Below are positions 76-49,425 of a stretch of 64,000 bases of DNA, piece after piece. The DNA comes from a virus. The position numbers and the translations under genes are program-made. Under the pieces are notes generated by a model. That model made no database searches and was not told the origin of the DNA. It worked only from the letters and a program-made list of their open reading frames with translations. Position 1 is the first letter of the stretch. Each line of letters begins with the position of its first letter. The stretch covers positions 1-64,000 of the IMG/VR virus record IMGVR_UViG_3300012953_006207; one strand, 5' to 3'.

Positions 76-591
76 ATGATTTATGTTTTATATGGACAAC
101 CTGCTTCAGGTAAAACCACGTTAGGACAAATGCTCGCGGAACATCTTCGAACACCATTCGTTATTGATGGCGATGAGTTTAGGGAGATGTTCACTAACGA
201 AAACTACGGGAGAATCGGGCGTGAAGAGAACATTAAAAACGCTAACGCTGTCGCTACTTATCTGAATAAAAAAGGCGAAAGAGACGAGTGGTCGGCTATT
301 TATTACAAAGGGCAAGACGGCAACTCCATTCAAGGTAGACCAGTCGAGAAAAGTACTGATGTTGTAATGTGTCTTGTTAATCCCTATAAGCATTTAAGAG
401 AAGAGCTTGCTAATAATAATCAAGATAAAGTGATTGAAGTTTTTTTGCAGTGTCGCAGAGACTTAAGGAAAGAATATCACGTAGAAGATTTTGAAATAGG
501 CGAACCACAGCACACTCTCCGCACTGATAAATCTCCTGAGGATTCTTGGAAAAATTTAAAAGAGCTTTTAAAAATCCCAGAATATAGATAA
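76..591 (+). CDS. cysC: Adenylyl-sulfate (APS) kinase-like P-loop kinase
   Basis: Walker A GQPASGKTT, IDGDEFR motif, 'GREENIKNA' segment and V..VNPY..R typical of the APS kinase family. Confidence 0.7.
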   Translation: MIYVLYGQPASGKTTLGQMLAEHLRTPFVIDGDEFREMFTNENYGRIGREENIKNANAVATYLNKKGERDEWSAIYYKGQDGNSIQGRPVEKSTDVVMCLVNPYKHLREELANNNQDKVIEVFLQCRRDLRKEYHVEDFEIGEPQHTLRTDKSPEDSWKNLKELLKIPEYR

Positions 592-1972: not shown

Positions 1973-4900
1973 ATGTCTCAGCAGAAGATTGACCACAGAC
2001 TTTTAAATCATTTTCTTAAACTGAAAATTTTTGACGGCTTAGGGCGTAAGCAAAAAAGTCTTGAGGATGTTGAGGATTTATTAAACAATTTCAAAGAGGA
2101 ACATCTCCTACTCAAAACTCAACAACACCTGAGAAAGGTTTGTGCTGAAAAAGGTGCAGACGAATACCAGAAATCCTTAGAAGGTGCTTTAGTTCAATTA
2201 AGAGGGGCAGCAGCCGAAATTATTTGTAACGCTGATACAATATTAAGAGGCGACACGAATATAAAGCGCGGTGAACGTATATCTCGCCAGAAAAGAGAAG
2301 AGTACAATATGGCCCTCAAAAAGCCTGAGGCGGGGGTTGATTATGAATGCGTAGACGCTCACCAACACGTAGATAAAGCTATACAAACTAAGTGGTACTC
2401 TAACGCATCCTCTAAAACCATTTTCACAAATGATATTTCTACCACTTTAATTGATGGCTTACATTGGCCTATTCTCGAAATATGGACTAACGCCTCAAAA
2501 GTGGACTCAGATGTTATTAAAGATAACGTAGTAGTATCTTGCCGTAATTCTTTAAGCAACCGTCTTACTCCACAGTACTTATCTAATATTAAGAACCTAA
2601 TTAAAGGTTCCGCAGTTAAACCACAAAAACCTTTAACTCCTCTTTGGTATCAGAGGATTGCGGTAAAAGCTTGCTTAAAAGCTTTCAAAAAATCTGACAG
2701 AGGCCAACTCAATGTGCCTTGTGGATGGGGCAAAACCCTAGCGGGACTCTGGATTGGAGAAGGTTTGGGGTCTAAAAAGACCTTAGCTTTGTGTCCTAGT
2801 AAAGACTTGTGTCGTCAAATCTTTTCAGCTTGGACGCAAAACGGAAGCAAAAAAAACATAAAACGACTCGTAGTATGCAGCGACGAGACCGTTTCTGATG
2901 ACGCTATAGCTGCTTACGAAGACGAATTAGATTTTGCAGTAGTTAAAGATTCGGGCAAGTTAAAAGAACTAACTCAAGACTGCGTTGAATACGAAATCAT
3001 TTGCACCTACCAATCAATCTCTAAGTTAATTGAGGCTGAATTAGACTTTGACTACGGCTTCTTCGACGAGGCTCATCGAACAACTCAACCAGACGACCAC
3101 CTATTTGCGCTTGGTTTGTTTGATAGAAATATAAAAATTGAAAAACGCTTGTTCGCAACAGCTACCCGAAGGTTTATTCATAGCAGAAACTCTCGCTGCA
3201 ACACTATGGAAGATGAATCCGTTTACGGCCCCGTCTTTTATCAAATGTCTTTCTCGGAAGCGGTCAGAACAGGACGCTCCCGCAAAAATGACAACGTTAA
3301 AATAATTTCTCCCGTTAAAATCGTAACGAATAAAATTACTAACGAAGAGTTAGATAGAGAATTAATCAAGCATGGTGTAACCAGAGTCGGCTGGGACTTA
3401 GCTCAGACAAGAATGGTTGCTTGTATTATAGGCTTCCTGAAGGCTGTTGATACTTTGAATCTTAAGAAAAGTTTTATTTACACGAATCGAGTAAATTCAG
3501 CAGAGAGGCTTGCCAATGACCCTGCGAACGGAATCTCCCAATTTACCGACAAAATAAAAAGCTTTCATGTAAATGGAGGCATGAGAAGCTCTGAAAGACA
3601 AAGGGAATTTACTTCTTTTTTAGAACAAGAATATTCGGTGGTAACTAACGCAAGGTGTCTCAACGAGGGAGTTGATTGTCCGCTGGTTGATTGCGTTGCG
3701 TTTTTTAATCCCCGCAAAAGCGTGATTGATATTGTCCAATCTGTTGGTAGGGCAATGAGGGTTGACAAAGATAATCCAGATAAAGTTGGATATATATATG
3801 TGCCTATCTTTGAGGATGTAGGAGAAAACATTAACGAAGCTTTATATGATTCCCCTTACGAAGTTTTAGTTGATGTTGTCCGCGCAATGGCCTCGCACGA
3901 TGATTCCTTGCAGGATTTACTAAATAAATGGCTCGAAGATATTGGGGGCGGTGGCGACGGAGATTTTCCTGAAATATTTGAAGTAATAGATGGAGACAAT
4001 GTTGACCTTGACGAACTGCGGAACAGCATCACCAGTCAAGTCATGACTATTTTTAGAAATAGAAAATGGTCCCTGTGGCAACAGCGAATTGGCTTAGCTA
4101 AAAAAATCAAAGAAAAATATGGTAATCCTAATTTTCACAATTTTTTGAGTGGACCGGACCCACATCCTACGGATAGCAAGTTCGCTAATGACTCTATGAT
4201 AACGAATGAATATATAACTTGGAGTCAAAACATAGTAAACAGACCCGAACAGCTTTCTGAATCAAAGCGCAATGAACTAATCGACTTAAACTTTGAATTT
4301 GAACCACTTCAACAACAGTGGAAAATTTTTACTAAATTAATATCAAACATCATAAAAGGTTACGTTCAACTCGGCAAACCAAGCCCAATCAATTGGGGTC
4401 TAGCCGAACTTGAGATTGATAAATGGTCAGAGGGCCACATCAAATCCAAAGAGAGTTTTGATTTTTTCAAACGCACATTTAACTATAATATGCTTGAAGT
4501 TGTAAAAAGATACAATGCAACTATTGACGATGACTCAAGGCTTAAAATAACCAAAAACGCGAAAACTCCTCCGACACATTTAAACCAGTGGCAGATGGAC
4601 TACTTGAAAGATATTAACTGGACTCCGATTACTGCATCCGAAGCTGCGGAGGATAGATTAGTATCCCTTGTTGAAAAAGTTTTGCGCGAAGGTAAAAACA
4701 AAAAACAAAGAGGAGGAAATAGATGGAACCTTAAAAGCTCAAAATCACTTCTTTATATTAGGGCCGAAGAAAAAACAGGTAAAATTATTTTCCCAGCGGA
4801 TTTTAAATATGACGGTGTGAACTTGGGGACTCTTTTACGCAACAGAAGAAAACCTACCAAAAGCAACAGAACAACTAATCTTCAAGCGGAAAAATTAAGG

Positions 4901-9526: not shown

Positions 9527-9869
9527 AGACTTAGCCCCAGATATAACTAGACAAAGAATTGTTATAGAAGGAACACTTCATAACCCTTTCCTGCCCGAAC
9601 AGATGGATAGATATTGCCGTGAGATGACCAGCGTTTTGAATATGACGGTGGTTACTGCTCCGTTTTGCAACTACGACCCTGCGTATGGCTGGTGTTCGTA
9701 TGTGCATTGGAAAGAGAGCGGGATGCATGTTTATGCATGGGACGATAGAAGTCCTTGCTTCTTTTCTGTGGATGTCTACACTTGCAGAGCGTTCGAACCA
9801 GAAACTGCCGTTAAATACACCCAAGAGTTTTTTGGCGATAACTTAATAGAATTAGCATGGAAAGAGTAA
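9519..9869 (+). CDS. S-adenosylmethionine decarboxylase-like pyruvoyl proenzyme
   Basis: KES autocleavage-type motif followed by HVYAW and SVDVYTC. Confidence 0.7.
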   Translation: MYKDLAPDITRQRIVIEGTLHNPFLPEQMDRYCREMTSVLNMTVVTAPFCNYDPAYGWCSYVHWKESGMHVYAWDDRSPCFFSVDVYTCRAFEPETAVKYTQEFFGDNLIELAWKE

Positions 9870-10396
9870 GTAAGCGAAAAGCATGTTTCCTTCAGATGAT
9901 TGAAAGGAAAAAGTGGAAAAGTTGGGAGATAAAAATTATTAAAAATAATTATAAAAAATTGACCGACATAGAAATAAATGAAAAGTATCTACCGCACAGA
10001 ACCGAAAGTGCGATACGAACAAGAAGGCACTTATTAAAGTTAAGAAAAGATATGCAGAAACATCAACTCTGGAATAAAGAGGAAATAAAAACCCTGAAAG
10101 AAAACTATCTAGATTACGACCAAAGAGAGTTGCGAGATAAGTTTTTCCCAGATAAAACTGTTGAACAAGTTAGGTCTGCCAAGATGAGTAGAGGGCTAAA
10201 AAAGCCTAGAGTTTGGACTGAAGAGGAAGTAGACTTATTGGTGCTACATGGTGCTAATCACACCCATACAGAAATGCATAAGAAGTTTTTACCCAACAAA
10301 ACTCCTGAAAAGATTAGCTCTATGAGAAGGTATTATAACATTAGGAGAACCCCAAATGTCGCGAAAAAAACTCATAAAGACCCTTCGTTCAATTGA
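9857..10396 (+). CDS. Protein with three Myb/SANT-like repeats (putative DNA binding)
   Basis: Three W..EE...L...Y/H......EI...(F)P.(R/K)T...IR units; true start may be ~9896. Confidence 0.7.
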   Translation: MERVSKRKACFLQMIERKKWKSWEIKIIKNNYKKLTDIEINEKYLPHRTESAIRTRRHLLKLRKDMQKHQLWNKEEIKTLKENYLDYDQRELRDKFFPDKTVEQVRSAKMSRGLKKPRVWTEEEVDLLVLHGANHTHTEMHKKFLPNKTPEKISSMRRYYNIRRTPNVAKKTHKDPSFN

Positions 10397-10559
10397 GGAG
10401 CTTGAGCATTATCTTTCTGAATCTCAGGTGTATGGCCTTAATATGGTTTCCATAACCACAACTACAGAACTTTTATCAAAGATAAAAAATAATTTACTAG
10501 ACGAAGGCTCCAATCTCGTGGACGTAGATGAAGAGCAGAATAAAGACGTTGAACCCTAA
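10356..10559 (+). CDS. Hypothetical protein
   Basis: Short ORF filling the gap before the sigma gene. Confidence 0.45.
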   Translation: MSRKKLIKTLRSIEELEHYLSESQVYGLNMVSITTTTELLSKIKNNLLDEGSNLVDVDEEQNKDVEP

Positions 10560-10564
10560 ACTGC

Positions 10565-11224
10565 ATGGCTGCTGCTTCCTTAGAAGAGAAACAAGAGCGA
10601 CGACTCTTACGCCTAGCCCGAAGGGGAAACTGCGAGGCTTATGAGGAGTTAATAGGTCATTACGGCCCTGCGCTAAAAGGATGGATAAGAAAGTATTGCA
10701 GGGGCAACGATGACTTAGCGGAAGAAATATACTCTATCACCATAATAAAGTGTTGGAGTAAGATAAAAAAGTTCAAAGGCAATTCTAAGTTTTCTACTTG
10801 GGCAAACGCCATAGCAAGAAATGCATTCCTAGATGAATTTCGCAAAAAGAAAAAATGCAAACTCATAGATATTGAAAACGTAGCTTTTCTGGCGTCTTCT
10901 TCTCAAGAATCAGAAGACCTCAAGAAATCTCCAGCGAAGCCAATTCCTGAATATGATTCAGTAGATGATGATCTACCTTCTGCCCGCATAGAGAATCAAG
11001 AAAAGAGGGATCAAGCTAAAAAAATATCCACCAAGGTCTTAAATAAACTCTCAAAAGATCACAGAGAAATATTAGAACTTCGAGATATGCATGGATTAGA
11101 GTACAGTGAAATTGCTTCTACACTTAAAATTCGTTTGGGTACTGTTATGTCTAGGCTTTACTATGCCAGAAGAAATGCGAAGAAGATTCTTCTTAGAATT
11201 GAAAAGCGTCAGCCAATATGCTAG
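10565..11224 (+). CDS. ECF (RpoE-type) sigma factor
   Basis: A.RG...AYEELI..Y, AEEI, FKGNSKFSTW...IARN..LD..R; region 4 REILELRD..GLEYSEIA..L....GTVMSRL..AR. Confidence 0.9.
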   Translation: MAAASLEEKQERRLLRLARRGNCEAYEELIGHYGPALKGWIRKYCRGNDDLAEEIYSITIIKCWSKIKKFKGNSKFSTWANAIARNAFLDEFRKKKKCKLIDIENVAFLASSSQESEDLKKSPAKPIPEYDSVDDDLPSARIENQEKRDQAKKISTKVLNKLSKDHREILELRDMHGLEYSEIASTLKIRLGTVMSRLYYARRNAKKILLRIEKRQPIC

Positions 11225-39780: not shown

Positions 39781-40761
39781 ATGGACACAAACAAGTTATT
39801 CCCGAATGTTGTTGGCCAAAGCAAAGTGAAGCGCAAGCTCGCTTTTTACGCCAAAAATTACAAAGCGAACAGTCGCATTCCTCATCTGTTCTTTTCTGCG
39901 CCCAAGGGTGCAGGTAAGACTCATGTCGCTACGGCGATGAGTCGCTTGCTCGCCTCTCGCGAGAACGAGGGCAAGGCCAAGGTTTTGCGTACTGTCAACT
40001 GCTCTGAGTTCAAGGGCTTGGCAAAGTTCGTCAACGAGTTCCTTATTCCCAAGGTGGTTGACCAAGAGGTGACCGTGTTCTTTGACGAGTGTCACATGAT
40101 GCCCAAGCAAATCGCTAATGCATTGCTGACTATCCTCAACCCCAACAAGGATAGGCGTACTCAGTATTCCTACGAGGATTTCGACATGGACTTCGATTTC
40201 ACTCGTCAGTCTTTCATGATGGCGACCACCGAATACGACAAGGTATTCGAACCTTTGAAGTCTCGGTTCACTGAGATTACTCTCCAAGAGTACTCGTTGG
40301 AGGAGTTGGGCAAGATTGTCTCCTATAACCTTGATGGTTATGATTTCGAGGATGGCGTGTTGGAGGACATCGCCAGCGTTACCCGTGGCAATGCTCGCAC
40401 GGCAACCACTCTGGCCGACGACATCAAAGACAATTTGGATATGCTCGGCACTACTGAGTTGACCAATGACATCTGGGATTACTTCAAGTACGCCCACAAC
40501 TTGAATCCGCTCGGCTTGTTCGAACGCGAGATTGGCGTACTCAACGTCCTTAACGAGAATCATCCGTCTCCGGTCAGCGTGTCTTTTGTTTGCGCTAATG
40601 TTGGAGATACCCTCGGCACTGTTCAGAATTACGAGAGGATGCTTATGAAGAATGGCCTCATGGAACGTGAGAATAACTGCCAGCGGTTAATTACCGCCAA
40701 AGGTCGCGATTACCTCACCAACCTAGAGGAGATAACCCAAAAGAATAAAGCATATGCATAA
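39781..40761 (+). CDS. ruvB: RuvB-like Holliday-junction AAA+ ATPase
   Basis: VGQ..VK..L, HLFFSAPKGAGKT, FFDECH, ATTE, PLKSRF, YS.EEL..IV, RG.AR.A, and C-terminal winged helix (YE..L...GL.ER....R..T.KG). Confidence 0.85.
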   Translation: MDTNKLFPNVVGQSKVKRKLAFYAKNYKANSRIPHLFFSAPKGAGKTHVATAMSRLLASRENEGKAKVLRTVNCSEFKGLAKFVNEFLIPKVVDQEVTVFFDECHMMPKQIANALLTILNPNKDRRTQYSYEDFDMDFDFTRQSFMMATTEYDKVFEPLKSRFTEITLQEYSLEELGKIVSYNLDGYDFEDGVLEDIASVTRGNARTATTLADDIKDNLDMLGTTELTNDIWDYFKYAHNLNPLGLFEREIGVLNVLNENHPSPVSVSFVCANVGDTLGTVQNYERMLMKNGLMERENNCQRLITAKGRDYLTNLEEITQKNKAYA

Positions 40762-40820
40762 AGACTGTACTGCATAGCAAGCGCGTTATAATTCGGGTTG
40801 TGCGCGTTTGTGTCCTAAGG

Positions 40821-40856
40821 CCCCACTTGAGATTGTCTGCTCAGGTGGGGTTTTTT
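40821..40856 (+). terminator. Rho-independent terminator
   Basis: CCCCACTTGAG...CTCAGGTGGGG-TTTTTT. Confidence 0.8.
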
Positions 40857-40895
40857 AATTTGACGTTTGCCGTGCGTGGTATTAAATTTTTTGAA

Positions 40896-41141
40896 ATGGA
40901 AACGATCATCACAAAGAGGAAGAAGAATCGATCAGATCACATTCATTCCAAAGTTAAAAACGTTTACAAAGTAATTATTGTTGAGCACGAGGGAGAGATG
41001 TGGGAAGTAGAGGAATGCCATAAGCTGAAAACAAATTTAGAAGATTTCAAAATCTCTCGCCAAGGGAAGTGGAGAAAAGTGGATAAGAGGAAGTTTACCG
41101 CTAATACTATTAATGATATAGATTGTTATCGAACTCGTTAA
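40896..41141 (+). CDS. Hypothetical protein
   Basis: TTGACG-17-TAAATT-7 nt-ATG. Confidence 0.55.
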   Translation: METIITKRKKNRSDHIHSKVKNVYKVIIVEHEGEMWEVEECHKLKTNLEDFKISRQGKWRKVDKRKFTANTINDIDCYRTR

Positions 41142-41170
41142 TTTCTCACAGCGTCACCTCACCCACCACA

Positions 41171-41204
41171 AAGTAGGGACCTTAATTGGTCCCTGCTTTC
41201 TTTT
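41171..41204 (+). terminator. Rho-independent terminator
   Basis: AAGTAGGGACC-TTAATT-GGTCCCTGCTT followed by a T-tract. Confidence 0.7.
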
Positions 41205-41355
41205 GTAGGTGTATATATACTCGATGGTAAGAGTACACTTTGACAGGTTATGTCTCGCTTAATTGCCAACCAACTAGACCATCAATAAGATCAAAATAAT
41301 CCATTTTTCCCAAATAAAGCAAATAAGGCAAATAAGTATTTTTTAGTGTTGACTT

Positions 41356-41425
41356 CCCCCCCCAGACCCCCGTGTCATCAGCCAAGGCTTGGCCAATGAC
41401 GTGGGGTCCCCAATTTTGCGTCAAG
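41356..41425 (+). repeat. GC-rich hairpin element copy 1 (arm A left, arm B right)
   Basis: C8-AGACCCCCG-TGTCAT-CAGCCAAGGCT-TGGCCAATGACG-TGGGGTCCCCAATTTTGCGTCAAG. Confidence 0.9.
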
Positions 41426-41561
41426 TATAAAAGCGGTATTTCATGCAGAAAAAAAAGTACTTATAACGCAAAAAAAACCTTGGCCTAAATCCAGAAATTG
41501 ATTAATCTAAGTACAGAGTTAAGAGACACAACAAAGAAACAAGAAAGCGAGAATACATATT

Positions 41562-42488
41562 ATGCCTATCCTAAAACAAACCACTTCCGACTTCGACTAC
41601 AACGTGGCTACCGTGCCGACTTACGTCAAAGACCCTCACACGGGCGAGTTCATTCGCACCGGAGTCCACGCCAACCAGCGACAAGATGACGGGCGCGTGG
41701 TCGGCCCTATCGTTTCGCATCGTTACGGGCTTGCCCAGAATAGCGATGTCATCAACATTGGCGAAGCTGCCATGCGTAACGCTGGCTTGCCGATGGATTC
41801 GGTGGAACGTAACGTGTCCGTGTACGGTGACGGCGAACGTATGCGCGTCACTTGGGATTTCCGCGACCAAACCAAGGCCGTGCGCGTTGAAGACCGCAAG
41901 GTCGGTGATGAGTTGGGCTTGCGCTTGTCACTGCAAAACTCCTTCAACCGCGAGACGAAGCTCTCGCTTAACCTTGGCTTGCTTCGCCTTGTTTGCTCCA
42001 ATGGCATGACAGCCTTGGACAACGAGTTCGGGCTTTCCCAGAAGCATAACTCCAAGTTGAACCTCGGCGCGATGTCCAGCGCATTGTCTCGCGCTTTGGA
42101 GTCGTTCAACTCCGGTGCTGCTACCGAGGTTTTCCACTTGCTCGCCTCCAAAGAGGTCGAACAGGAACAGGGACTCATTGCCCTGCAAAACATGGTCAAC
42201 GACAAGTTGTTCAGCGAACGCACTCGCAAGGGCATTGCCGAAATTTGGAATGCTCCAACCTTCGACGAAGACGGTGACCGCAACCTGTACAACCTGTACA
42301 ACGCGGGTACTCAGTACCTCACGCACTCCATCGCGGACAATCGCCGTGAACTTGCGGAGAAGACTTCGCGCCGACTGCTCACCACGCTGAACACGGCGGT
42401 GCGTTCCGAGGCAAACCTGACAACCCTCATCACTCCGCGCAAGACGCTGCAAGTGGTCGAGACTGTCGAGGACTCCCTCGCCATCTAA
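41562..42488 (+). CDS. DUF932 (DUF945)-family protein
   Basis: VS.RY...QN, L.NSFN, LGLLRLVCSNGM, KH, NLYNLYNA.T.Y.TH; GC-rich, C-ending codons. Confidence 0.85.
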   Translation: MPILKQTTSDFDYNVATVPTYVKDPHTGEFIRTGVHANQRQDDGRVVGPIVSHRYGLAQNSDVINIGEAAMRNAGLPMDSVERNVSVYGDGERMRVTWDFRDQTKAVRVEDRKVGDELGLRLSLQNSFNRETKLSLNLGLLRLVCSNGMTALDNEFGLSQKHNSKLNLGAMSSALSRALESFNSGAATEVFHLLASKEVEQEQGLIALQNMVNDKLFSERTRKGIAEIWNAPTFDEDGDRNLYNLYNAGTQYLTHSIADNRRELAEKTSRRLLTTLNTAVRSEANLTTLITPRKTLQVVETVEDSLAI

Positions 42489-42507
42489 GGGTAGGCTACC
42501 CAACCCA

Positions 42508-42557
42508 CAAATCCCTCGCCCTCTCCCCCATCCACGGGGGCGGGGGATTTTTTTTGT
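42508..42557 (+). terminator. Rho-independent terminator
   Basis: AAATCCCTCGCCCTC...GGGGGCGGGGGATTT followed by a T-tract. Confidence 0.75.
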
Positions 42558-42720
42558 ATTAATTAAATGCTTTTATTAGCGCGTCATTTCTGAGCGACAA
42601 ATCAATTTGCCAACCAAAAAACGCAGAAAGTGATCGGCAAGTTTTCGTGAAAAGGGGGGTTTTCTCGTGTGCGAAATTCGCCCGAAATACGAAATCTTCA
42701 CGGGCTGTTGACAAGAAAAG

Positions 42721-42789
42721 CTTGACGGCAAATTGGGGACCCCATGTCATTAGCCAAGATTTGGCCAATGACGCGGGGGTCTGGGGGGG
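42721..42789 (+). repeat. Hairpin element copy 2 (arm B left, arm A right)
   Basis: CTTGACGGCAAATTGGGGACCCCA-TGTCAT-TAGCCAAGATT-TGGCCAATGACG-CGGGGGTCTGGGGGGG. Confidence 0.9.
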
Positions 42790-42862
42790 CATGGAACTTG
42801 CTCATTAAAAAAAATGCTTTTCCTGTATTGACTTATTCCAAGAATTAAACGATATTTAGGTT

Positions 42863-43072
42863 ATGGACGCTTTCAGAATCGCATTGGACACCAAAAGAAG
42901 GCATGGGTACAACTATCAAAATGGACGGTGGATTCGTGGCTTTCAACACAACGGAACTGCGGATGATGAAATTCGTTGGATGAAATGGCAAAGACTAGAA
43001 AAAGCATTGCGAACGATAGATGAAAACACTTCTTACGAGGACATAATTAAAAAAGTGATGGGAGGCGAGTAA
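42863..43072 (+). CDS. Hypothetical early protein
   Basis: ATG 6 nt after the -10 of promoter 42828. Confidence 0.6.
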   Translation: MDAFRIALDTKRRHGYNYQNGRWIRGFQHNGTADDEIRWMKWQRLEKALRTIDENTSYEDIIKKVMGGE

Positions 43073-43623
43073 TGAGTTTTAATGATGATAAAAAAGAAAT
43101 TCAAGAACGAGTCATAGACTTAATTGATAAAACGAATGATAAGTTTGGCTTGGGCATGGCGTACCCGACTATCACCTACGACCTAAAAGGTACGGTGGCG
43201 GGTCAGGCATTCTATTATGAGAATAAGTTGAGACTTAATTCTATAGCACTTAAAAAGTACCGCGAACATTTTATTGAACAAACTGTTGGGCATGAAGTTG
43301 CTCACCTCACTGCGTTCAAACGACACGGCGGTGGGATTTCTCCTCATGGAACCGAATGGAAGAACTTCATGAGATTCTTCCGTCTCCCACCAGACCGTTG
43401 CCATACTTATGATTTGCCATCCGCTCGCGGTGGGGGCAGGAAGCGATACGTTTGCCAGAGTTGCCCCAAAGAGTTTAGCCTCAGCACAATCAAACACAAC
43501 AGGTGGCTGCGCGGTGAAAGCAAGCTCAGTTGCCAACGGTGTGGTGGTAAAGTTGTGTGGGAAAACACAGTGCCACAAAAGAAAAAGCCCTCGGAAGTAG
43601 GAATGGACTTGATTGAATTCTAG
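43072..43623 (+). CDS. SprT-like zinc metalloprotease
   Basis: G.VAGQA, HEVAH (HExxH), PHG.EWK..M, C-terminal CxxC..CxxC zinc ribbon. Confidence 0.9.
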   Translation: MSFNDDKKEIQERVIDLIDKTNDKFGLGMAYPTITYDLKGTVAGQAFYYENKLRLNSIALKKYREHFIEQTVGHEVAHLTAFKRHGGGISPHGTEWKNFMRFFRLPPDRCHTYDLPSARGGGRKRYVCQSCPKEFSLSTIKHNRWLRGESKLSCQRCGGKVVWENTVPQKKKPSEVGMDLIEF

Positions 43624-43643
43624 AAATGGAATAGTATAAGATT

Positions 43644-43895
43644 ATGAGAATGAAAGAAGCAATTAACGGCAGACTAGTTTACAACCAGAAGCGCAACCAA
43701 GTGGAACGGATTCGCTCTACCAACCTCAACGGCTCGAGTCTGATGGTGTCTCGGCACGGCGATGACTTGATGGCAGCTAAGCTCTCAGACCTTAGGTATG
43801 CCACTCAGAACGAGGTTGATGTTTATAAGGCTGAGACTGCCGTCAACCAATCGATGCAAAACGGAATTGTCACACGCAACGGAGTGACAGTCTAA
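43644..43895 (+). CDS. Hypothetical protein
   Basis: TTGATT-17-TAGTAT-6 nt-ATG. Confidence 0.6.
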   Translation: MRMKEAINGRLVYNQKRNQVERIRSTNLNGSSLMVSRHGDDLMAAKLSDLRYATQNEVDVYKAETAVNQSMQNGIVTRNGVTV

Positions 43896-43908
43896 CTTTA
43901 CTCGCTCG

Positions 43909-43953
43909 GCGGGTGGAGGGTTTTTCCGCTGGCCCTCCGCCCGCTTTCTTTTT
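43909..43953 (+). terminator. Rho-independent terminator
   Basis: GCGGGTGGAGGG...CCCTCCGCCCGC-TTTCTTTTT. Confidence 0.75.
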
Positions 43954-44120
43954 CTGGACTTATTCTAAGAATTAGTGTAGATTGGAGTATGAAGAATGAA
44001 ACTATCTCACCAACGCAACAAGTACGGCTTCACCTAGGCTGTATATTTATACAACTTAAAAACAATCGGATGTCTAAGATTTGGTGGCATCTGAAAGGAA
44101 TAGTTCGCTCTTTAATCTAA

Positions 44121-44576
44121 ATGAAAAAAAATGCTATTTATATCACTCTTTTGTTTCTTAGTTTTGCTCTCAATGCTGGGAAGAAGGACCTGACAGACCA
44201 ACAAGTTGTAGCTCTCACGATTCTCGGGGAGGCGCGTGGAGAAGGGGCGGGGGGTATGTATGGCGTCGCCTGTGTTATAGCCGAACGCTCTATCAACTGG
44301 AAAAGGAACGGGCGCAAACAAACTCCCCGACAGGTATGTTTAGTAGACAAACAATTCGAATGTTGGAACAACGGAAAGATACCCAGCGAAAGATTACTTG
44401 ATACCCCACAAGGAAAGTATGCTCTTTATTTGGCTATGAATATAAAAAGAGTAGACCGTAGCTATGTAAACTTTGCTGACCATTTTTGTCATATCAAAAA
44501 AAATCCATATTGGGCGAGTGGACGCAAGCCAGTAGCTATCATAAAAAAACATAAGTTCTTCAAACTCAGGGGTTGA
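44121..44576 (+). CDS. SleB/CwlJ-like cell-wall hydrolase (Hydrolase_2) with signal peptide
   Basis: Signal peptide; ALTILGEARGE...G..GVA.VI..R, QF.CWN, PYWA, I..H.FF. Confidence 0.85.
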   Translation: MKKNAIYITLLFLSFALNAGKKDLTDQQVVALTILGEARGEGAGGMYGVACVIAERSINWKRNGRKQTPRQVCLVDKQFECWNNGKIPSERLLDTPQGKYALYLAMNIKRVDRSYVNFADHFCHIKKNPYWASGRKPVAIIKKHKFFKLRG

Positions 44577-44607
44577 CTTATTCCAAGAATTAACCGATAC
44601 TGAATAC

Positions 44608-44898
44608 ATGGTAAGCGGATTGGTTAAACTACAGGCTAAAGAGGACGCACGTTCTTCCACCAAAAAAAGCATCGAAAAGCACGGGCCGTGGTTCGTGGTT
44701 GCTCGCGATTTCGTGCGAGACACAAAAGGACGCTTGGGGTATTACGTTTACCCCGCCAACGATGTAACGAATCTGCTCATGCAAAGCATGGCCGACAAAC
44801 GCGCAGGGTGTGAGTCTGCGTTGCCCCATCTATGGTCGGGCGTTCTGCGTCACGACGAGTGCGAACTCCTCAAGGGTTCAGCGAATATGTACCCTTAA
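44608..44898 (+). CDS. Hypothetical early protein (paralog of 51753)
   Basis: VK..A...A...TK.....HGP.F. Confidence 0.6.
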   Translation: MVSGLVKLQAKEDARSSTKKSIEKHGPWFVVARDFVRDTKGRLGYYVYPANDVTNLLMQSMADKRAGCESALPHLWSGVLRHDECELLKGSANMYP

Positions 44899-44942
44899 TT
44901 GCGTTGACTTATTCCAACAATTAACCCATAATTAGAAATCTT

Positions 44943-45296
44943 ATGAAAGCGGAACCATTAAAATCAAATCACTACAACCAAGCTCAAGAACTTGGTATAA
45001 CTAAAATCGTTCTCGAATGGTCGGGAGGAAGCGACGAGGGGCATCTCCATGTTTCTACTCAAGTAGCCGACAGGTTGGACGAAATCTCTGACGAGAAGCG
45101 TAAAACGATATATAGACTTGAAAGCGACATTGAGGAGTGGGGTTATGACGTTTACGAATATAGTGGCGCGGGTGACGGCAATCCCTACGGAGACACAATT
45201 AAGTACGACCTTGTAAAAGGTACAGTCTCAACTGTGGAATGGTATACCAAAGAAGTCTACGACGAACCAGAAACTTTCACCTTGTCCGTTGATTAG
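44943..45296 (+). CDS. DUF6878-like protein
   Basis: GIT.I..EWSGGSDEG...GAGDG..YG.TI..D. Confidence 0.6.
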   Translation: MKAEPLKSNHYNQAQELGITKIVLEWSGGSDEGHLHVSTQVADRLDEISDEKRKTIYRLESDIEEWGYDVYEYSGAGDGNPYGDTIKYDLVKGTVSTVEWYTKEVYDEPETFTLSVD

Positions 45297-45298
45297 AC

Positions 45299-45655
45299 AT
45301 GACGCCTTGGAAACACGCTGAATCCTCTGTTGCCCGATGGGGTGGAGAACCTACTGACTACGTTGCTCTGCATGATTGGTTTGATGAGACAAAGCAATTC
45401 ACTGGTGATTGGACTCATCGCGCATTGCGTCACCACTCTGCGGGTATTCAATGGGCCGTTGAAAGGTTTGGACACGCCATAAGAAACTCAAAGGGTAAAC
45501 TTATACCAACTAAAGCACTTGCGGAACAGCACGTTACAGAGGACTGCGGATTCATTCCGACACCACAAGATTGGCTCATGCAAGTTAAAGTGAATCCAGA
45601 CCCTTGGATGTTAAAAGTTAAAACTAAAAGCGTAACAAAATTGGAAGTAAAATGA
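45299..45655 (+). CDS. DUF6915-like His-rich protein
   Basis: P..HA.SS..RWGG...DY..LH.WFD.TK, HRALRHH..GI, AEQHV.ED.G.IP...DWL. Confidence 0.75.
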   Translation: MTPWKHAESSVARWGGEPTDYVALHDWFDETKQFTGDWTHRALRHHSAGIQWAVERFGHAIRNSKGKLIPTKALAEQHVTEDCGFIPTPQDWLMQVKVNPDPWMLKVKTKSVTKLEVK

Positions 45656-45825
45656 AAAGATACTCAGTAAAAATTAGAGAGGTACACGAACAGCAGATAT
45701 TTGTATCAGCTAAAGATGCAGATGACGCCAAAGAAAAAGCTGCCGAAGGAGTAGGGGATTTAGCTAATGGTACAGAGTTTTTGTATGCGCTGGATTCAGA
45801 CACTTGGGAAGTAGAGGAGGACTAA
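45652..45825 (+). CDS. 57-aa hypothetical protein (DpnD/PcfM-like pattern)
   Basis: MKRYSVKIREVHEQQIFVSAKDADDAKEKA...EED; hand-translated. Confidence 0.6.
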   Translation: MKRYSVKIREVHEQQIFVSAKDADDAKEKAAEGVGDLANGTEFLYALDSDTWEVEED

Positions 45826-45987
45826 ATGACCAAAGAAGAAGTCAGAGAACAAATCCAAGAGGACATAATTACCTATCTTGAAGGCTTGCCATCTGGGTGG
45901 CTGATGGGGTTTGAGAAAATGCCTCAAGAGGAAATTGATGCACTTTGCCAAATCGTAGTAGACAACTTTAAGAAATTGGAGGACTAA
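45826..45987 (+). CDS. 53-aa acidic hypothetical protein
   Basis: GGAGGACTAAATG junction; MTKEEVREQIQEDI...LED. Confidence 0.6.
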   Translation: MTKEEVREQIQEDIITYLEGLPSGWLMGFEKMPQEEIDALCQIVVDNFKKLED

Positions 45988-45990
45988 ATT

Positions 45991-46164
45991 ATGAAATACA
46001 AAGTACCAGTTAGTTGGCAGATGTACGGTCACGTTACCGTAGAAGCAGATACGCTTGAACACGCAGCAAAAATTGCTGAATCAGACATGGGTATTGGCTT
46101 GCCTGACAATGGTGAGTATGTAGAATCATCATGGGAAGTGGATTGGGCGGTATTGGAGGACTAA
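45991..46164 (+). CDS. 57-aa hypothetical protein (DpnD/PcfM-like pattern)
   Basis: MKYKVPVSWQMYGHVTVEADTLEHA...LED. Confidence 0.6.
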   Translation: MKYKVPVSWQMYGHVTVEADTLEHAAKIAESDMGIGLPDNGEYVESSWEVDWAVLED

Positions 46165-46332
46165 ATGAAAACATCAGAAAGAACAGAACAACTTGCCCGT
46201 GACATGGTTGATTCATGGGATGACAAAGACTTGTATAGTTTTGCGGTAGACATGGTAACAGAGAACCTTGAGAAGTGCGACGAGGAAGAATTTAAGTCTG
46301 AATGGAATAACTATTACGGAGAGGATGCATAA
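46165..46332 (+). CDS. 55-aa acidic protein (paralog of 31587)
   Basis: GGAGGACTAAATG junction; LARDMVDSW...EEFKSEWNNY. Confidence 0.6.
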   Translation: MKTSERTEQLARDMVDSWDDKDLYSFAVDMVTENLEKCDEEEFKSEWNNYYGEDA

Positions 46333-46532
46333 TGGAACATAATCACAAACAAGACCAACACGATAGAATAATGATTAACCGAATCAAGGACGACCTTGAG
46401 GATTGGTTGACTACTCATGGAGAAATCACAATGGGCAGCGAGATGGTTAAAGATGTTCACCGACTCATTGACGAATCGGTGCATCGCACCAAACTCATGC
46501 GAAAGGATTGGATGAAGCCAGACAGAAGTTAA
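46332..46532 (+). CDS. Hypothetical early protein
   Basis: TAATG coupling. Confidence 0.55.
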   Translation: MEHNHKQDQHDRIMINRIKDDLEDWLTTHGEITMGSEMVKDVHRLIDESVHRTKLMRKDWMKPDRS

Positions 46533-46592
46533 AGTCATAGCCAAATAAATTTGCCCATTTAAATAAATATAAATAAATAATAATCCCCTTCA

Positions 46593-46658
46593 CCCCCCCA
46601 GACCCCCGTGTCATCATCCAGATGGCCAATGACGTGGGGTCCCCATTTTTGAGTCAAG
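46593..46658 (+). repeat. Hairpin element copy 3 (A left, B right)
   Basis: C7-AGACCCCCG-TGTCAT-CATCCAGA-TGGCCAATGACG-TGGGGTCCCCATTTTTGAGTCAAG. Confidence 0.9.
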
Positions 46659-46852
46659 CCTAAAGTGAGGAATTTTTTTAGAAAAAGTGCCTCTGAGGCA
46701 TTGACTTTTTCTAGTAATTGAATTAGATTGGTTGAAGATGAACGACGCGGAAAGAGTAGCACAGGACAAACGGATTTTAGAATGGTGGAGGCTCACAAAG
46801 AATTTATCAAGTAGGACAGCGGATGTCCCACCTCCCGTGGTAGGGTATGCAT

Positions 46853-46987
46853 ATGAAAAAAAACAAGAAACAACCGAAGGCGCGAGTGAATCCCGAAGGC
46901 TACATGGGCAGCGCATCGCGTGAGCATAAAGTGAAGAAGGGCAAAGGCTCTTACAAGCGGAACAAAAAAATTAACCCAGAGGACTAA
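46853..46987 (+). CDS. ArfA-like 44-aa ribosome-rescue peptide
   Basis: MKKNKKQPKARVNPEGYMGSASREHKVKKGKGSYKRNKKINPED contains the ArfA KKGKGSYxR motif; has its own promoter. Confidence 0.6.
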   Translation: MKKNKKQPKARVNPEGYMGSASREHKVKKGKGSYKRNKKINPED

Positions 46988-46994
46988 AAAGATT

Positions 46995-47411
46995 ATGAGT
47001 AAAACAAGTGTTCAAAAATGCGGAACCAACTGGCGCGTGATTCTCACAGGAGACGCCCAAGCAATCGAAACCAAACATTGGTCAATGTTCAATCATGGCG
47101 CGACAAGCTCCGACCTCGAATGGGAAACGGCAAATTGCGCGTGGTTCTGGTCTACTCCTGAAAAGATTTTGAAAGCGTTTACCAACGCGCATCTTTTCTC
47201 ATACTTGAATCAATTTGATTTGATAGGAGACGAACCAGAAGTGGCAGGGCATGAAGCAAAAGCTCACAATGACGCAAAGCAGGAATTTTTTGCGATGGGG
47301 AATATGCCTAGCTTCAAGCCGTTTCGCTCTGTTTCAATCCTGAATTTGGATTGCTTCGCGATGGGTACGGGTTCGGCTCGTGCTGAAAAAATGGCAGTAG
47401 AAACCAAGTAA
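46995..47411 (+). CDS. Hypothetical early protein
   Basis: GAGG SD; protein-like ORF. Confidence 0.6.
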   Translation: MSKTSVQKCGTNWRVILTGDAQAIETKHWSMFNHGATSSDLEWETANCAWFWSTPEKILKAFTNAHLFSYLNQFDLIGDEPEVAGHEAKAHNDAKQEFFAMGNMPSFKPFRSVSILNLDCFAMGTGSARAEKMAVETK

Positions 47412-47430
47412 AGAAAAAGGTTTATTTGAT

Positions 47431-48183
47431 ATGAAAATTCTCTCTATCGATGCAGACGCAAAAACCGTTAAAGGTCTCAAGAAAGGCTATCGCACTGCGA
47501 TTAGCTACCTTGCGCCCAGTAACGCCAGCGGTGTAATGAATACTTGCCCAAGTGCAAGCAAAGGGTGTCGGGCTGCTTGTCTTTACGGGGCAGGTCGTGC
47601 CAAGTTCACGCCATCAATTCCAAAGGCGCGAATCAACAAAACAAAGTTTTTTCATTCCGACCCTGTAGGCTACGGCCAGCAGCTTTACAAGGAATTAAAA
47701 GCTCACCAGAAAAGCTCTGCGCGTAAAGGCTTAACACCTACCGTGCGCCTCAACGGAACAAGCGATATTGCTTGGGAGGATTTCATTCTAGAGGAAACGG
47801 GGAAAAACGTTTTTGAATCTTTCCCCGATTTACAATTTTATGACTATACCAAGCGGACAAACCGCGTTGCGGATTATGCAGACGGCAAGCTTCCGAAAAA
47901 TTACCACCTCACGTTTTCAAAGAGTGAAAACACCAGCGACGAACAAGTTGCAAAGATTCTGGGTTGGGGTGTCAACGTTGCGGTAGTCTACGCAAACGAA
48001 TTGCCCGAAGCTGACTTTGACGGTTGGCAGGTTATCAATGGCGACGAAAACGATTTACGCTTCCTCGACCCCATCGGCGTTGTTGTTGGTCTAAAGTATA
48101 AAAAGACTTCAGCAACTGAGGAGGACAAAAACGGATTTGTTCGCGAGTTGAAATTTGCAAACGCAGTTCTTGAGACTGCATAA
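47431..48183 (+). CDS. GP88-like phage protein
   Basis: CP.AS.GC.AACL...GR, VRLNGTSDI, QFYDYTK, NYHLTFS, GD..DLRFLDP..VVVGLK.K. Confidence 0.8.
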   Translation: MKILSIDADAKTVKGLKKGYRTAISYLAPSNASGVMNTCPSASKGCRAACLYGAGRAKFTPSIPKARINKTKFFHSDPVGYGQQLYKELKAHQKSSARKGLTPTVRLNGTSDIAWEDFILEETGKNVFESFPDLQFYDYTKRTNRVADYADGKLPKNYHLTFSKSENTSDEQVAKILGWGVNVAVVYANELPEADFDGWQVINGDENDLRFLDPIGVVVGLKYKKTSATEEDKNGFVRELKFANAVLETA

Positions 48184-48290
48184 CAAAAAACCGAAAGGAA
48201 AAAAAATGCTATGGATAACGTTATCTATCATATCAGCCGTAGTACTTTGTAAATTGGTATCAAAATAAAAAAATAAAATAATAGCTCCCC

Positions 48291-48364
48291 CTTGACAGGG
48301 GGGGCAAATTGGGGACCCCATGTCATTAGCCGAACACGGCCAATGACGCGGGGGTGTGGGGGGG
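48291..48364 (+). repeat. Hairpin element copy 4 (B left, A right)
   Basis: CTTGAC...AAATTGGGGACCCCA-TGTCAT-TAGCCGAACA-CGGCCAATGACG-CGGGGGTGTGGGGGGG. Confidence 0.9.
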
Positions 48365-48455
48365 TACAGAACTTGCTTCGGAACCATTTAAAAAAAAGAA
48401 AAAAAATGACCGTTAGGGGGTTGACTTATTCCAAGAAAGAGAGTAGATTAAGAGA

Positions 48456-48845
48456 GTGGACAGGGGTAAGACCCAGTACGAGCCCAAGGGCAGGATTACA
48501 AAATCTAGGCAGACAGTATGCGACGAGGGCAAGAAGCTGTAAGACCCTCGGCCTGAAACTGCCGTTTAAATTTCTCGCAACAACGCGAGGAAGCATAGGT
48601 GAAGAACATTAAACGTCCGTGAGAGGCAACGGCCTATGCAACAATTTACTGGGAGGCAGAATACAGTCTAGGCAAGCCTAACGTAGCGAACGGGGTACGC
48701 GCCCTGTTAGGGACGAGGAAGCACCAGTAGACGTTTTCGCAATAACGCGGGAATGAAACTAACTAGAAAGGTAACATAGTGCAGGAGGTTGGCCAGAGAA
48801 GGCGGTTACCGCTGGGCCGTAAAGCACTTGAAAAATGCCTCTTAA
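48456..48845 (+). ncRNA. Candidate large structured ncRNA (~390 nt), family unknown
   Basis: Starts right after the TTGACT-17-TAGATT promoter; no credible ORF; many nested stems (see findings). Confidence 0.65.
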
Positions 48846-48855
48846 TTTTTGATAA

Positions 48856-49062
48856 ATGAAAAACTACAAAACATACCAAGCCCGTAACGCTGTCAAAGCA
48901 GCGCAAGTCACCAACCACATCAAATCCCGCAAGGCTCAAGGCGTTGAACACAACGAAGCTAAAGCTGAAGCGTATTATATATATAATATAAAACAGGGTA
49001 AGAAAATTATTCTAAACACCCTAAACTACGCAACGCCTACCAAATCTCTGGTATGTAAATAA
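48856..49062 (+). CDS. Basic hypothetical protein
   Basis: ORF directly downstream of the ncRNA candidate. Confidence 0.5.
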   Translation: MKNYKTYQARNAVKAAQVTNHIKSRKAQGVEHNEAKAEAYYIYNIKQGKKIILNTLNYATPTKSLVCK

Positions 49063-49089
49063 ATAATAAAAATAACAAGTCTGGGTTCA

Positions 49090-49150
49090 CCCCCAGACCC
49101 CCGTGTCATTGTCCTTGGCCCATGACGTGGGGTCCCCAAAAACGGTCAAG
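49090..49150 (+). repeat. Hairpin element copy 5 (A left, B right)
   Basis: CCCCCAGACCCCCG-TGTCAT-TGTCCT-TGGCCCATGACG-TGGGGTCCCCAAAAACGGTCAAG. Confidence 0.9.
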
Positions 49151-49218
49151 CTTTATTTTTTTTATTTATTTAAATGGTGGGACAGCCAATGTCCTACCCC
49201 CCATGGTAATCTATACGC

Positions 49219-49425
49219 ATGAAGTTTGAGACAGGAACACAAGTACAGCACCGCGACAACCCCATGTGGAAGGCCGTTGTGGTGCGCGACCTCAACCCCC
49301 GCAAGCCAGTGAATAGCTGTGTGATGGTGAATCACAACGGGCGGGAAGTGCCAATGGGCAAGAGTCTTTTGCGGGTATCCTTCCACGCAGACGCCAAAAA
49401 AGAATTTGGCGAAGTTGTAAGCTAG
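49219..49425 (+). CDS. Small SH3/KOW-like protein (paralog of 54002)
   Basis: V.H.......VV.DLNP..PV...V.V. Confidence 0.55.
   Translation: MKFETGTQVQHRDNPMWKAVVVRDLNPRKPVNSCVMVNHNGREVPMGKSLLRVSFHADAKKEFGEVVS

Follow-up and report, generated by a model that had tools for sequence, protein, structure and literature searches.

Introduction

To our knowledge, the non-coding RNAs of phages besides tRNAs are few and mostly unexplained. The present analysis concerns a further candidate, located at positions 48456-48851 on the + strand of the IMG/VR virus record IMGVR_UViG_3300012953_006207 (80,696 bases, estimated to be 51% complete); the window, i.e., the whole stretch of DNA that was analysed, comprises positions 1-64,000 of this record. 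The 48456-48851 stretch probably represents a gene, in an uncultured large phage of marine origin, for a non-coding RNA arranged as a chain of autonomous, separately folding modules that would act in trans. A first-pass annotation, made from the sequence alone, had described 48456-48845 as a large phage non-coding RNA comparable in style to the GOLLD, ROOL, and OLE classes. This description holds as far as a promoter-driven, structured, non-coding, and Rfam-unknown RNA is concerned, but not as a single ornate fold of the GOLLD/ROOL/OLE style, since relatives shuffle the modules.

Among described RNAs, one of the closest to this locus is manA, which has been presented, together with wcaG, as a riboswitch candidate of marine phages and cyanophages by Weinberg et al. 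2010 (PMC2864571). According to the accessible part of a preprint, manA forms 8-, 10-, and 60-mer RNA cages in vitro as seen by cryo-electron microscopy, and genomic arrays are not discussed in that part (Ren et al. 2026, bioRxiv 10.64898/2026.07.01.735769). The RNA considered here shares with manA the marine phage origin and a structured sequence, free of open reading frames (ORFs), behind a promoter; in relatives, manA lies in the same transcript as the modules A, B, and C introduced below. It differs in that the window modules A, B, D, and E have no detectable similarity to manA, and in that manA has been described as cis-regulatory, whereas in the arrays of relatives it is one cargo module of a shuffled set.

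The ornate RNAs GOLLD, ROOL, and OLE are, as outlined in the part consulted of Kretsch et al. 2025 (PMC12286853), phage-associated, hundreds of nt long, richly structured, and devoid of an ORF, all of which is equally true of the window RNA. Unlike them, the latter is a shuffled chain of small modules instead of one conserved large fold, and it has no adjacent tRNA genes, with few tRNAs found kilobases away in 51 related loci.

In rRNA and tRNA operons, a promoter is followed by a chain of structured untranslated RNAs with short A/U-rich spacers, and boxA antitermination leaders are present. The window RNA resembles such stable-RNA operons, as well as phage tRNA clusters, in being a promoter-driven structured untranslated chain with A/U-rich spacers, and tRNA-like modules, with a GGUUCGAAUCC T-loop, are part of some related arrays. 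The window array differs from such operons by the lack of boxA, tRNA, and tmRNA.

Finally, 10,006 candidate structured RNAs of IMG/VR have been reported in the accessible text of Fremin, Bhatt and Kyrpides 2023 (PMC10690425), which shares with the present work both the source and the comparative approach to phage structured RNAs. No paper on shuffled module arrays around manA was found; the supplements of PMC2864571, PMC9964418, and PMC10690425 may list related motifs.

Promoter and ORF-Free Stretch

The transcript is predicted to start from the following element:

48421-48449, + strand: sigma-70-type early promoter, TTGACT (48421), 17-nt spacer, TAGATT (48444-48449); one of 11 family copies

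With 1 mismatch permitted, the promoter pattern TTGACTTAT-N14-TANNNT is found 11 times in the window, where 0.81 would be expected by chance, and none of 100 shuffles reaches 11. An ATG is found 5-10 nt past the -10 box in 10 of the 11 family promoters, in each case opening an ORF of 43-210 aa; judging by this arrangement, these ten apparently drive leaderless mRNAs of small early genes. The 48421 promoter is the sole family copy without an ATG at this distance: its first ATG lies at +68 and opens an ORF of 12 aa, and the next credible gene (ATG 48856) begins about 395 nt downstream. The three + frames of 48390-48860 contain 10, 9, and 12 stop codons, and the longest + strand ORFs beginning within the stretch encode 28 and 26 aa. 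The lone ATG-less family promoter and the stop-filled frames thus confirm what the first-pass annotation had observed, namely, a promoter with TTGACT at 48421 and TAGATT at 48444 that fires into about 400 nt with no credible ORF, whereas its siblings fire onto an ATG. The -35 box TTGACTTATT and the -10 box are kept in the related loci L090 and L128, where an unrelated spacer separates them and ACAGGGG follows after 10-11 nt.

The 11 near-identical early promoters (TTGACTTATTCC...TANNNT) are spread over window positions 29416-53993.

Modules and Covariation

Mapping of seed segments to relatives resolves the stretch into a chain, D-h-B-A-h-E, of separately conserved pieces:

48460-48568, + strand: module D, leader module; 95-100% identical in L066, L093, L090, L102, L106, and L116, with a third variant in L128
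48571-48592, + strand: hairpin h, copy 1, UUUCUCGC-AACAAC-GCGAGGAA; folding z -5.45
48593-48639, + strand: module B; 7-bp P1, conserved internal loop, 4-bp P2 with an AGAGG loop
48645-48731, + strand: module A; P1, P2 hairpin, P4 hairpin, invariant purine-rich junctions; the most widespread module
48732-48755, + strand: hairpin h, copy 2, CGUUUUCGC-AAUAAC-GCGGGAAUG; folding z -3.66; in the same place after A in many relatives
48770-48851, + strand: module E, 3' terminal; AGUGC/GCACU enclosing GGCC/GGCC and GCGG/CCGC

For modules A and B, alignments of 39 (A1) and 17 (A2) distinct sequences, respectively, were built. In module A, the 28 predicted pairs are formed in 99.4% of cells, compared with 27.8-50.0% when the 3' partner is slid. 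Six pairs, distributed across three helices, are changed on both sides in a total of 37 cells, and the covariation score is reached by 0 of 500 shuffles, a count which, like that for module B, is not to be taken as a probability. For example, one P1 pair is GC in 21 sequences, AU in 17, and GU in one, one P2 pair is AU in 33, GC in 5, and GU in one, and three P4 pairs also belong here. Two helices proposed earlier, TACTGG/CCAGTA and AACGGGG/CCCTGTT, are thereby supported by covariation. The helix TAGGC/GCCTA is not supported: its second pair is broken in 22 of the 39 sequences, and RNAalifold pairs this segment with the 3' junction instead, so that the variable positions all fall in loops. As it does not vary, the long irregular helix of A lies outside the covariation test.

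In module B, 98.9% of cells are paired against 24.6-39.6% with the partner slid, and again 0 of 500 shuffles reach the score. P1 of this module corresponds to GCATAGG/CCTATGC of the first-pass annotation; it is paired in 100% of cells, and 4 of its 7 pairs are compensatory (11 cells), one of them appearing as GC, UA, CG, and UG. Compensatory changes are thus present in both modules, as the proposal of a structured RNA had predicted. G.U pairs are frequent among those kept (for instance, at covarying pairs of module A, UG in 20/39 and GU in 9/39 sequences), and the covariation therefore fits an RNA of the + strand only.

Hairpin h, noticed earlier as occurring twice with nearly the same loop, is real and conserved in both copies; with an AAYAAC loop it recurs in many relatives, including one compensatory variant, CUCAC/GUGAG. 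The linker word A[ACU]AA[ACU]UU lies at most 22 nt 5' of module A in 47 of 53 loci and at most 16 nt 3' of the module in 38 of 53; the background frequency of the word is 2.8/kb, and its U's extend P1 of the module.

Modules D and E are known from fewer sequences. D is the first module wherever arrays have it, and in the window, L066, L090, L116, and L128 it begins 10-11 nt past the -10 box. Its three variants differ in one tetraloop (CAAG, GGAA, or AAAG) and in a position that breaks the GGATT/AATCT helix. A scan for D returned 14 stretches, 13 of which were GC-rich chance matches and the remaining one the already known L128. Module E is 87-90% identical in L085, L066, L090, L102, and L106; its four variants include one paired deletion that turns GCGG/CCGC into GCG/CGC. 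All helices named in the first-pass annotation lie where it had placed them, and those predicted for D and E are invariant in the 3-4 variants, with two further exceptions. In the variants of L090 and L128, an A.A mismatch interrupts GGATT/AATCT (48493-506); GCCC/GGGC is, for steric reasons, only GCC/GGC with a 4-nt loop that varies among relatives, as given above. Within E, pairing is possible between AGGAGG (48783-48788) and CCUCUU (48838-48843), the latter standing ahead of a U-run (48846-48850); by inference from the sequence, this pairing together with the U-run may represent a terminator or a pseudoknot.

Relatives and Module Shuffling

When the stretch was compared by nhmmer with 44 loci surrounding relatives of the GP88-family protein encoded nearby, L004 alone was found, and covariance model (CM) R1, which finds module A, gave no match in 43 GP88-neighbour loci. 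Two invariant words provided by L004 were used for exact scans and then in a gapped pattern to collect relatives. The gapped-pattern scan of IMG/VR yielded nine matches, five of them true (in 5 contigs) and four due to chance. The metagenome scan gave 60 stretches, of which 57 have a complete module A, two are cut by contig ends, and one (L120) is a chance match; many of the metagenome contig names are those of ocean surveys. In 185,579 species genomes no copy was found, bacterial or archaeal, apart from three chance-like stretches; L122 and L124 of the genome stretches have no CM match, and L123 is the same contig as the chance match L120. CM R2 detects module B in 24 of 100 sources and added no diverged B copy. 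The representative set comprises 54 arrays, and the linker count given above refers to 53 loci.

Homology with the distant relative L090 runs from 48460 to 48849, i.e., it coincides with the predicted transcript, and the flanks are unalignable. Within this frame, the modules vary in presence and order:

Window: D-h-B-A-h-E
L066 and L093: D-h-B-F-A-h-E
L090: D-X-B-C-A-h-E
L116: D-X-B-C-A-T
L091 and L048: G-X-..-C-A-h-T (L091: G-X-C-A-h-T)
L050: A-B-C-manA
L110: A-manA-C
L071: A-B-manA
L107: A-C-manA

Comparison of close relatives is most telling. L066 and L093 are 98% identical to the window over 48032-48647, and yet they have an extra module between B and A:

L066:1051-1123 (+ strand) and L093:150-222 (- strand): module F, 73 nt, with an AACAA(A)UUU linker on both sides

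The same linker on both sides of the insertion makes recombination at linkers a plausible route of module gain and loss. L050 and L130 share 94.5% identity as far as the point where A begins, after which L130 is without A and C and keeps B and manA. Module B precedes A in the window and follows it in L050, and both B and C are also found without A, in loci where CM R1 detects no A. The ends of the chain are more constant: the first module is G in L004, L048, and L091, and the last one is always E or T, usually behind h. Matches to a loose sigma-70 regex, for which there was no shuffle control, lie upstream on the same strand in 40 of the 54 arrays.

Judged by module order, such shuffling is the behaviour of autonomous units and not of domains of one large fold. 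It bears directly on the alternative in which all 390 nt make up a single large tertiary or quaternary structure of the GOLLD/ROOL/OLE style, with the modules as domains of one particle, an explanation that we regard as very unlikely. The 73-nt module that separates B from A in a strain 98% identical to the window, the reversed A/B order in L050, and the absence of A and C from L130 are hard to reconcile with it; there is no Rfam match to GOLLD, ROOL, OLE, or raiA, and the long-range pairs of the global minimum free energy (MFE) fold contradict the covariation-supported fold of B. It can draw on the folding energy of the whole stretch (z -3.28), which is better than that of most single modules, on the invariant junction and loop sequences, and on the self-complementary loop words, namely CGCG in the P4 loop of A, which is invariant, and two copies of GGCC in E. 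Known ornate phage RNAs and manA do multimerise, as stated in the accessible portions of PMC12286853 and bioRxiv 10.64898/2026.07.01.735769.

manA itself is found in several of the relatives. At the gathering score, manA (RF01745) was detected in L050 only among L048, L050, and L004, in 4 of 20 further A-bearing loci, and in L130 and L135 among 11 loci from the B/C scan, with 59.2-70.7 bits against a gathering score of 55.2, always within the same noncoding array. In the window there is no manA match at gathering, nor one at E up to 10 in 48250-48999, and none in the 80.7-kb record. The window stretch therefore shows two of the traits of these arrays, a promoter-driven ORF-free transcript and separately conserved, covarying, shuffled modules, and has no manA or manA-like module; this copy is a manA-less member of a modular phage RNA array family, built only of uncatalogued modules.

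In 13 of the 54 arrays, the first element is a boxB-like hairpin followed by GAUCUUU(G)AAACAAU (found with the boxA-like regex GCUCUUUAACAA), a sequence that resembles the E. coli rrn boxA. The same regex finds no boxA-type leader in the window, where only the AACAAUUU part occurs, at 48640-48647.

Several other placements of the modules were seen. In L131:1222-1275 (- strand), module B stands directly behind a stop codon and looks terminator-like, with a lengthened GC-rich P1 and a U-run, and in L127:1577-1632 (- strand) B alone lies between a promoter and a homologue of the window ORF at 48856. A tRNA-like module occurs in some arrays, at L126:1185-1330 (+ strand), L128 about 2590-2720 (- strand), and L134 about 100-240 (+ strand). 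In this module, a long insert is enclosed by an acceptor-like stem of 8 bp and a T-loop, GGUUCGAAUCC or GGUUCGAGCCC; ARAGORN makes no call on it, and the Rfam tmRNA model matches its tRNA-like ends only (16.9 bits versus a gathering score of 47). In the cyanophage S-CREM1, wcaG (9745-9842), manA (10215-10429), and abiF (10531-10567) are placed on one strand within about 820 nt, as given in Table 4 of PMC9964418; the arrangement looks array-like in the same way, here in a T4-like phage that has been cultured.

Folding Energy and Searches of Known Families

The + strand of 48456-48845 has an MFE of -124.6 kcal/mol compared with -107.1 +/- 5.3 for 100 dinucleotide shuffles (z -3.28), and none of the 100 is as good; for the - strand, z is -0.97 and 18 of 100 shuffles are as good. 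The prediction that folding would be better than that of shuffled sequence is thus borne out for the + strand and not for the other. Taken alone, modules B and A have z values of -2.09 and -1.99, respectively. Thermodynamics by itself provides moderate support for a structured RNA, and with folding scores only moderate, the case rests on comparison with relatives.

A search of the whole 64-kb window with Rfam 15 at the gathering score gave 0 matches, and a permissive search of 48250-48999 returned five chance-level matches only (E 3.5-7.6, 11-16 bits against gathering scores of 45-71). The covariance models of GOLLD, ROOL, OLE, and raiA have no match in the window. ARAGORN finds 0 tRNA or tmRNA genes there, and Rfam tRNA and tmRNA matches are likewise absent. 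A blastn search with 48400-48900 against 50,697 phage records, a set that possibly does not include the closest records of the window, gave no match. GGA motifs of the CsrA type, counted by hand, are no commoner in the stretch than its composition predicts. The suspicion that the RNA might be novel is upheld as far as the Rfam catalogue goes, and a promoter-driven, structured, non-coding phage RNA of the + strand, absent from Rfam, is supported.

The strand-specific signal also speaks to the notion that the stretch is no functional RNA at all, being instead a DNA-level element (an origin, a packaging or recombination site) or a decayed GC-rich self-complementary coding sequence. Such a reading is hardly credible: the folding signal is confined to the + strand; the kept G.U pairs would become A.C mismatches on the other strand; no frame is open; the unit is co-oriented with an upstream promoter (by the loose regex, in 40 of 54 arrays); and conservation proceeds by modules, with compensatory changes and with presence in RNA-library contigs. 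What speaks for it is that the region lies among repeated GC-rich intergenic hairpin elements and that D and E fold no better than shuffles.

Presence in RNA Libraries

Module A is held by contigs of four metatranscriptome runs from three studies. An RNA-library contig of 158 nt covers 48651-48806 at 99+% identity, and three other RNA-library contigs, from two further studies, carry the module A of relatives; one of these, at depth 69, runs into a manA-like hairpin. Elsewhere in 47900-49400, i.e., outside 48637-48806, RNA sets X1 and X5 contain no or unrelated contig cover, which says nothing on the expression level. The shares of 0.07-0.17 across RNA runs name no habitat by themselves. Presence in RNA libraries is thus seen for module A, although DNA carry-over may contribute to it.

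The Downstream Gene and the Leader Question

Immediately behind the array lies a small gene:

48856-49062, + strand: gene for a conserved 68-aa small basic protein, MK.YKTYQARNAVKAA.VTNHIK..., without a family promoter or Shine-Dalgarno sequence

The protein is 72% identical over 53 aa to an ORF of L127 and 68% identical over 56 aa to an ORF of L004, and the C-termini differ. Its ATG sits 5 nt past the U-run of module E (48846-48850). As the gene has no family promoter, the window transcript probably continues into it. A promoter for this gene inside E was considered and dropped, since its -35-like word TTGAAA is not kept in L066.

These features raise the question of whether the stretch is a long cis-acting 5' leader of the 68-aa gene, riboswitch-like or an attenuator, whose modules sense a ligand or a protein and set read-through past the U-run. 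The short distance from the U-run to ATG 48856, the lack of a family promoter and a Shine-Dalgarno sequence of the gene's own, and the loss of the -35-like word in L066 are all consistent with such a leader, as is the locus L127, in which a promoter and B alone precede the homologous gene. The AGGAGG/CCUCUU pairing with the U-run could serve as a conditional terminator, and manA and wcaG were first proposed as cis-regulators (PMC2864571). Nevertheless, a leader of this kind is unlikely. A constant place upstream of one gene class is not what is observed: only window-type copies and L127 abut the 68-aa gene, and the next conserved ORF after the 54 arrays is a member of one of at least 8 clusters or is encoded on the other strand. 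This variation of the downstream genes makes a dedicated riboswitch-type leader unlikely. The homologue of the 68-aa gene in L004 is served by a separate promoter and by a plain leader of 35 nt that contains no RNA modules; the array of this locus, about 2 kb from the gene, likewise has a promoter to itself and finishes in a U-rich end, beyond which the genes are convergent. New family promoters also come after the same end module, E or T, in L090 (about 140 nt past E) and in L116. In addition, the modules move independently of one another, and the B copy of L131 stands, terminator-like, behind a stop codon.

Genomic Surroundings

The RNA and the 68-aa ORF together are bracketed by GC-rich hairpin elements at window positions 48289-48366 and 49077-49140, copies of which recur in the early region. 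They are composed of CCCCC..GGGGG arms around TGTCAT...ATGAC cores. The arrays belong to an early region, represented by 39781-48183 in the window, that is syntenic in relatives and encodes a RuvB-like AAA protein, a DUF932 protein, an L5 gp82-like protein, and a GP88-family protein, which are found in 14-37 of 61 loci. The neighbouring genes (RuvB-like AAA, DUF932, L5 gp82-like, GP88, and a cell-wall hydrolase) give no hint of an RNA-binding partner. The helicase-like protein of the window has only remote matches (<26% identity) in cultured phages.

Proposed Mode of Action

The most likely interpretation, by analogy with stable-RNA operons, is that of an operon-like transcript with autonomous trans-acting modules. 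The RNA would be transcribed early by the host RNA polymerase from its sigma-70-type promoter, as the promoter family suggests. The chain would follow a fixed frame. A leader comes first (D in the window; G or an rRNA-style boxB-boxA leader in relatives), then the cargo modules (h, B, and A here; F, X, C, manA, and the tRNA-like module in relatives), and the chain would finish with hairpin h and, at the 3' end, with module E (replaced by T in relatives), which has a C/U-rich strand and a U-run. The A/U-rich AAYAAUUU linkers bracket the modules, and recombination at these sites may explain gain and loss. The modules would act in trans as stable structured RNAs, perhaps once an endonuclease has cut the linkers, in the manner of tRNA and rRNA operons. 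The cage-forming manA found in sister arrays suggests, by analogy, that the modules may be self-assembling or protein-binding particles of early infection; the position-fixed leader modules may shield the untranslated transcript from premature (Rho-type) termination. The roles of protein sponge, scaffold, or anti-defence RNA offered in the first-pass annotation are conjectural.

A more far-reaching version may be put forward tentatively, as a possibility that we consider rather doubtful. It supposes a phage "RNA operon", from which a changeable set of autonomous RNA particles, self-assembling (with the CGCG loop of A and the two GGCC words of E as possible kissing contacts) or serving as decoys for host factors, would be freed at the linkers, with the D, G, and boxB-boxA leaders as anti-termination devices and with linker recombination as the source of new combinations.

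Several observations count against a chain of autonomous trans-acting modules and should be set beside the evidence for it. Module D alone folds no better than shuffles (z -1.22), nor does module E (z +0.82), and as both are known in 3-4 near-identical variants, their structures rest on conservation. The alignments of A and B were collected with patterns that fix 21-22 bases, and their sequences are related, so the covariation events that are independent are few. The RNA runs are assembled contigs, which show presence and not ends or levels, with DNA carry-over possible. In the window, L066, and L085, a real gene without a family promoter directly adjoins the RNA, and in L127 the same gene follows the promoter and B; a leader role therefore retains a small probability here. 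The cage and rRNA-antitermination analogies come from relatives, whereas the window RNA is without manA and boxA, and the function of the RNA is wholly inferred, by analogy.

Implications

In the light of these data, manA-type arrays appear as one face of a wider system, in which early promoters drive chains of conserved RNA folds that are reordered like cassettes. It includes at least four RNA modules that are absent from the RNA catalogue (A, B, D, and E), two of which (A and B) are supported by covariation, and the finding argues against a cis-regulatory reading of such RNAs. Being short (50-110 nt), the modules are suitable targets for work on structure, multimerisation, and host partners. 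If the leader modules are true anti-termination devices, they would be new members of a very small class. If the chain is indeed an RNA operon, it would show domains being shuffled in RNA, and the RNA families outside the catalogues would number at least four.

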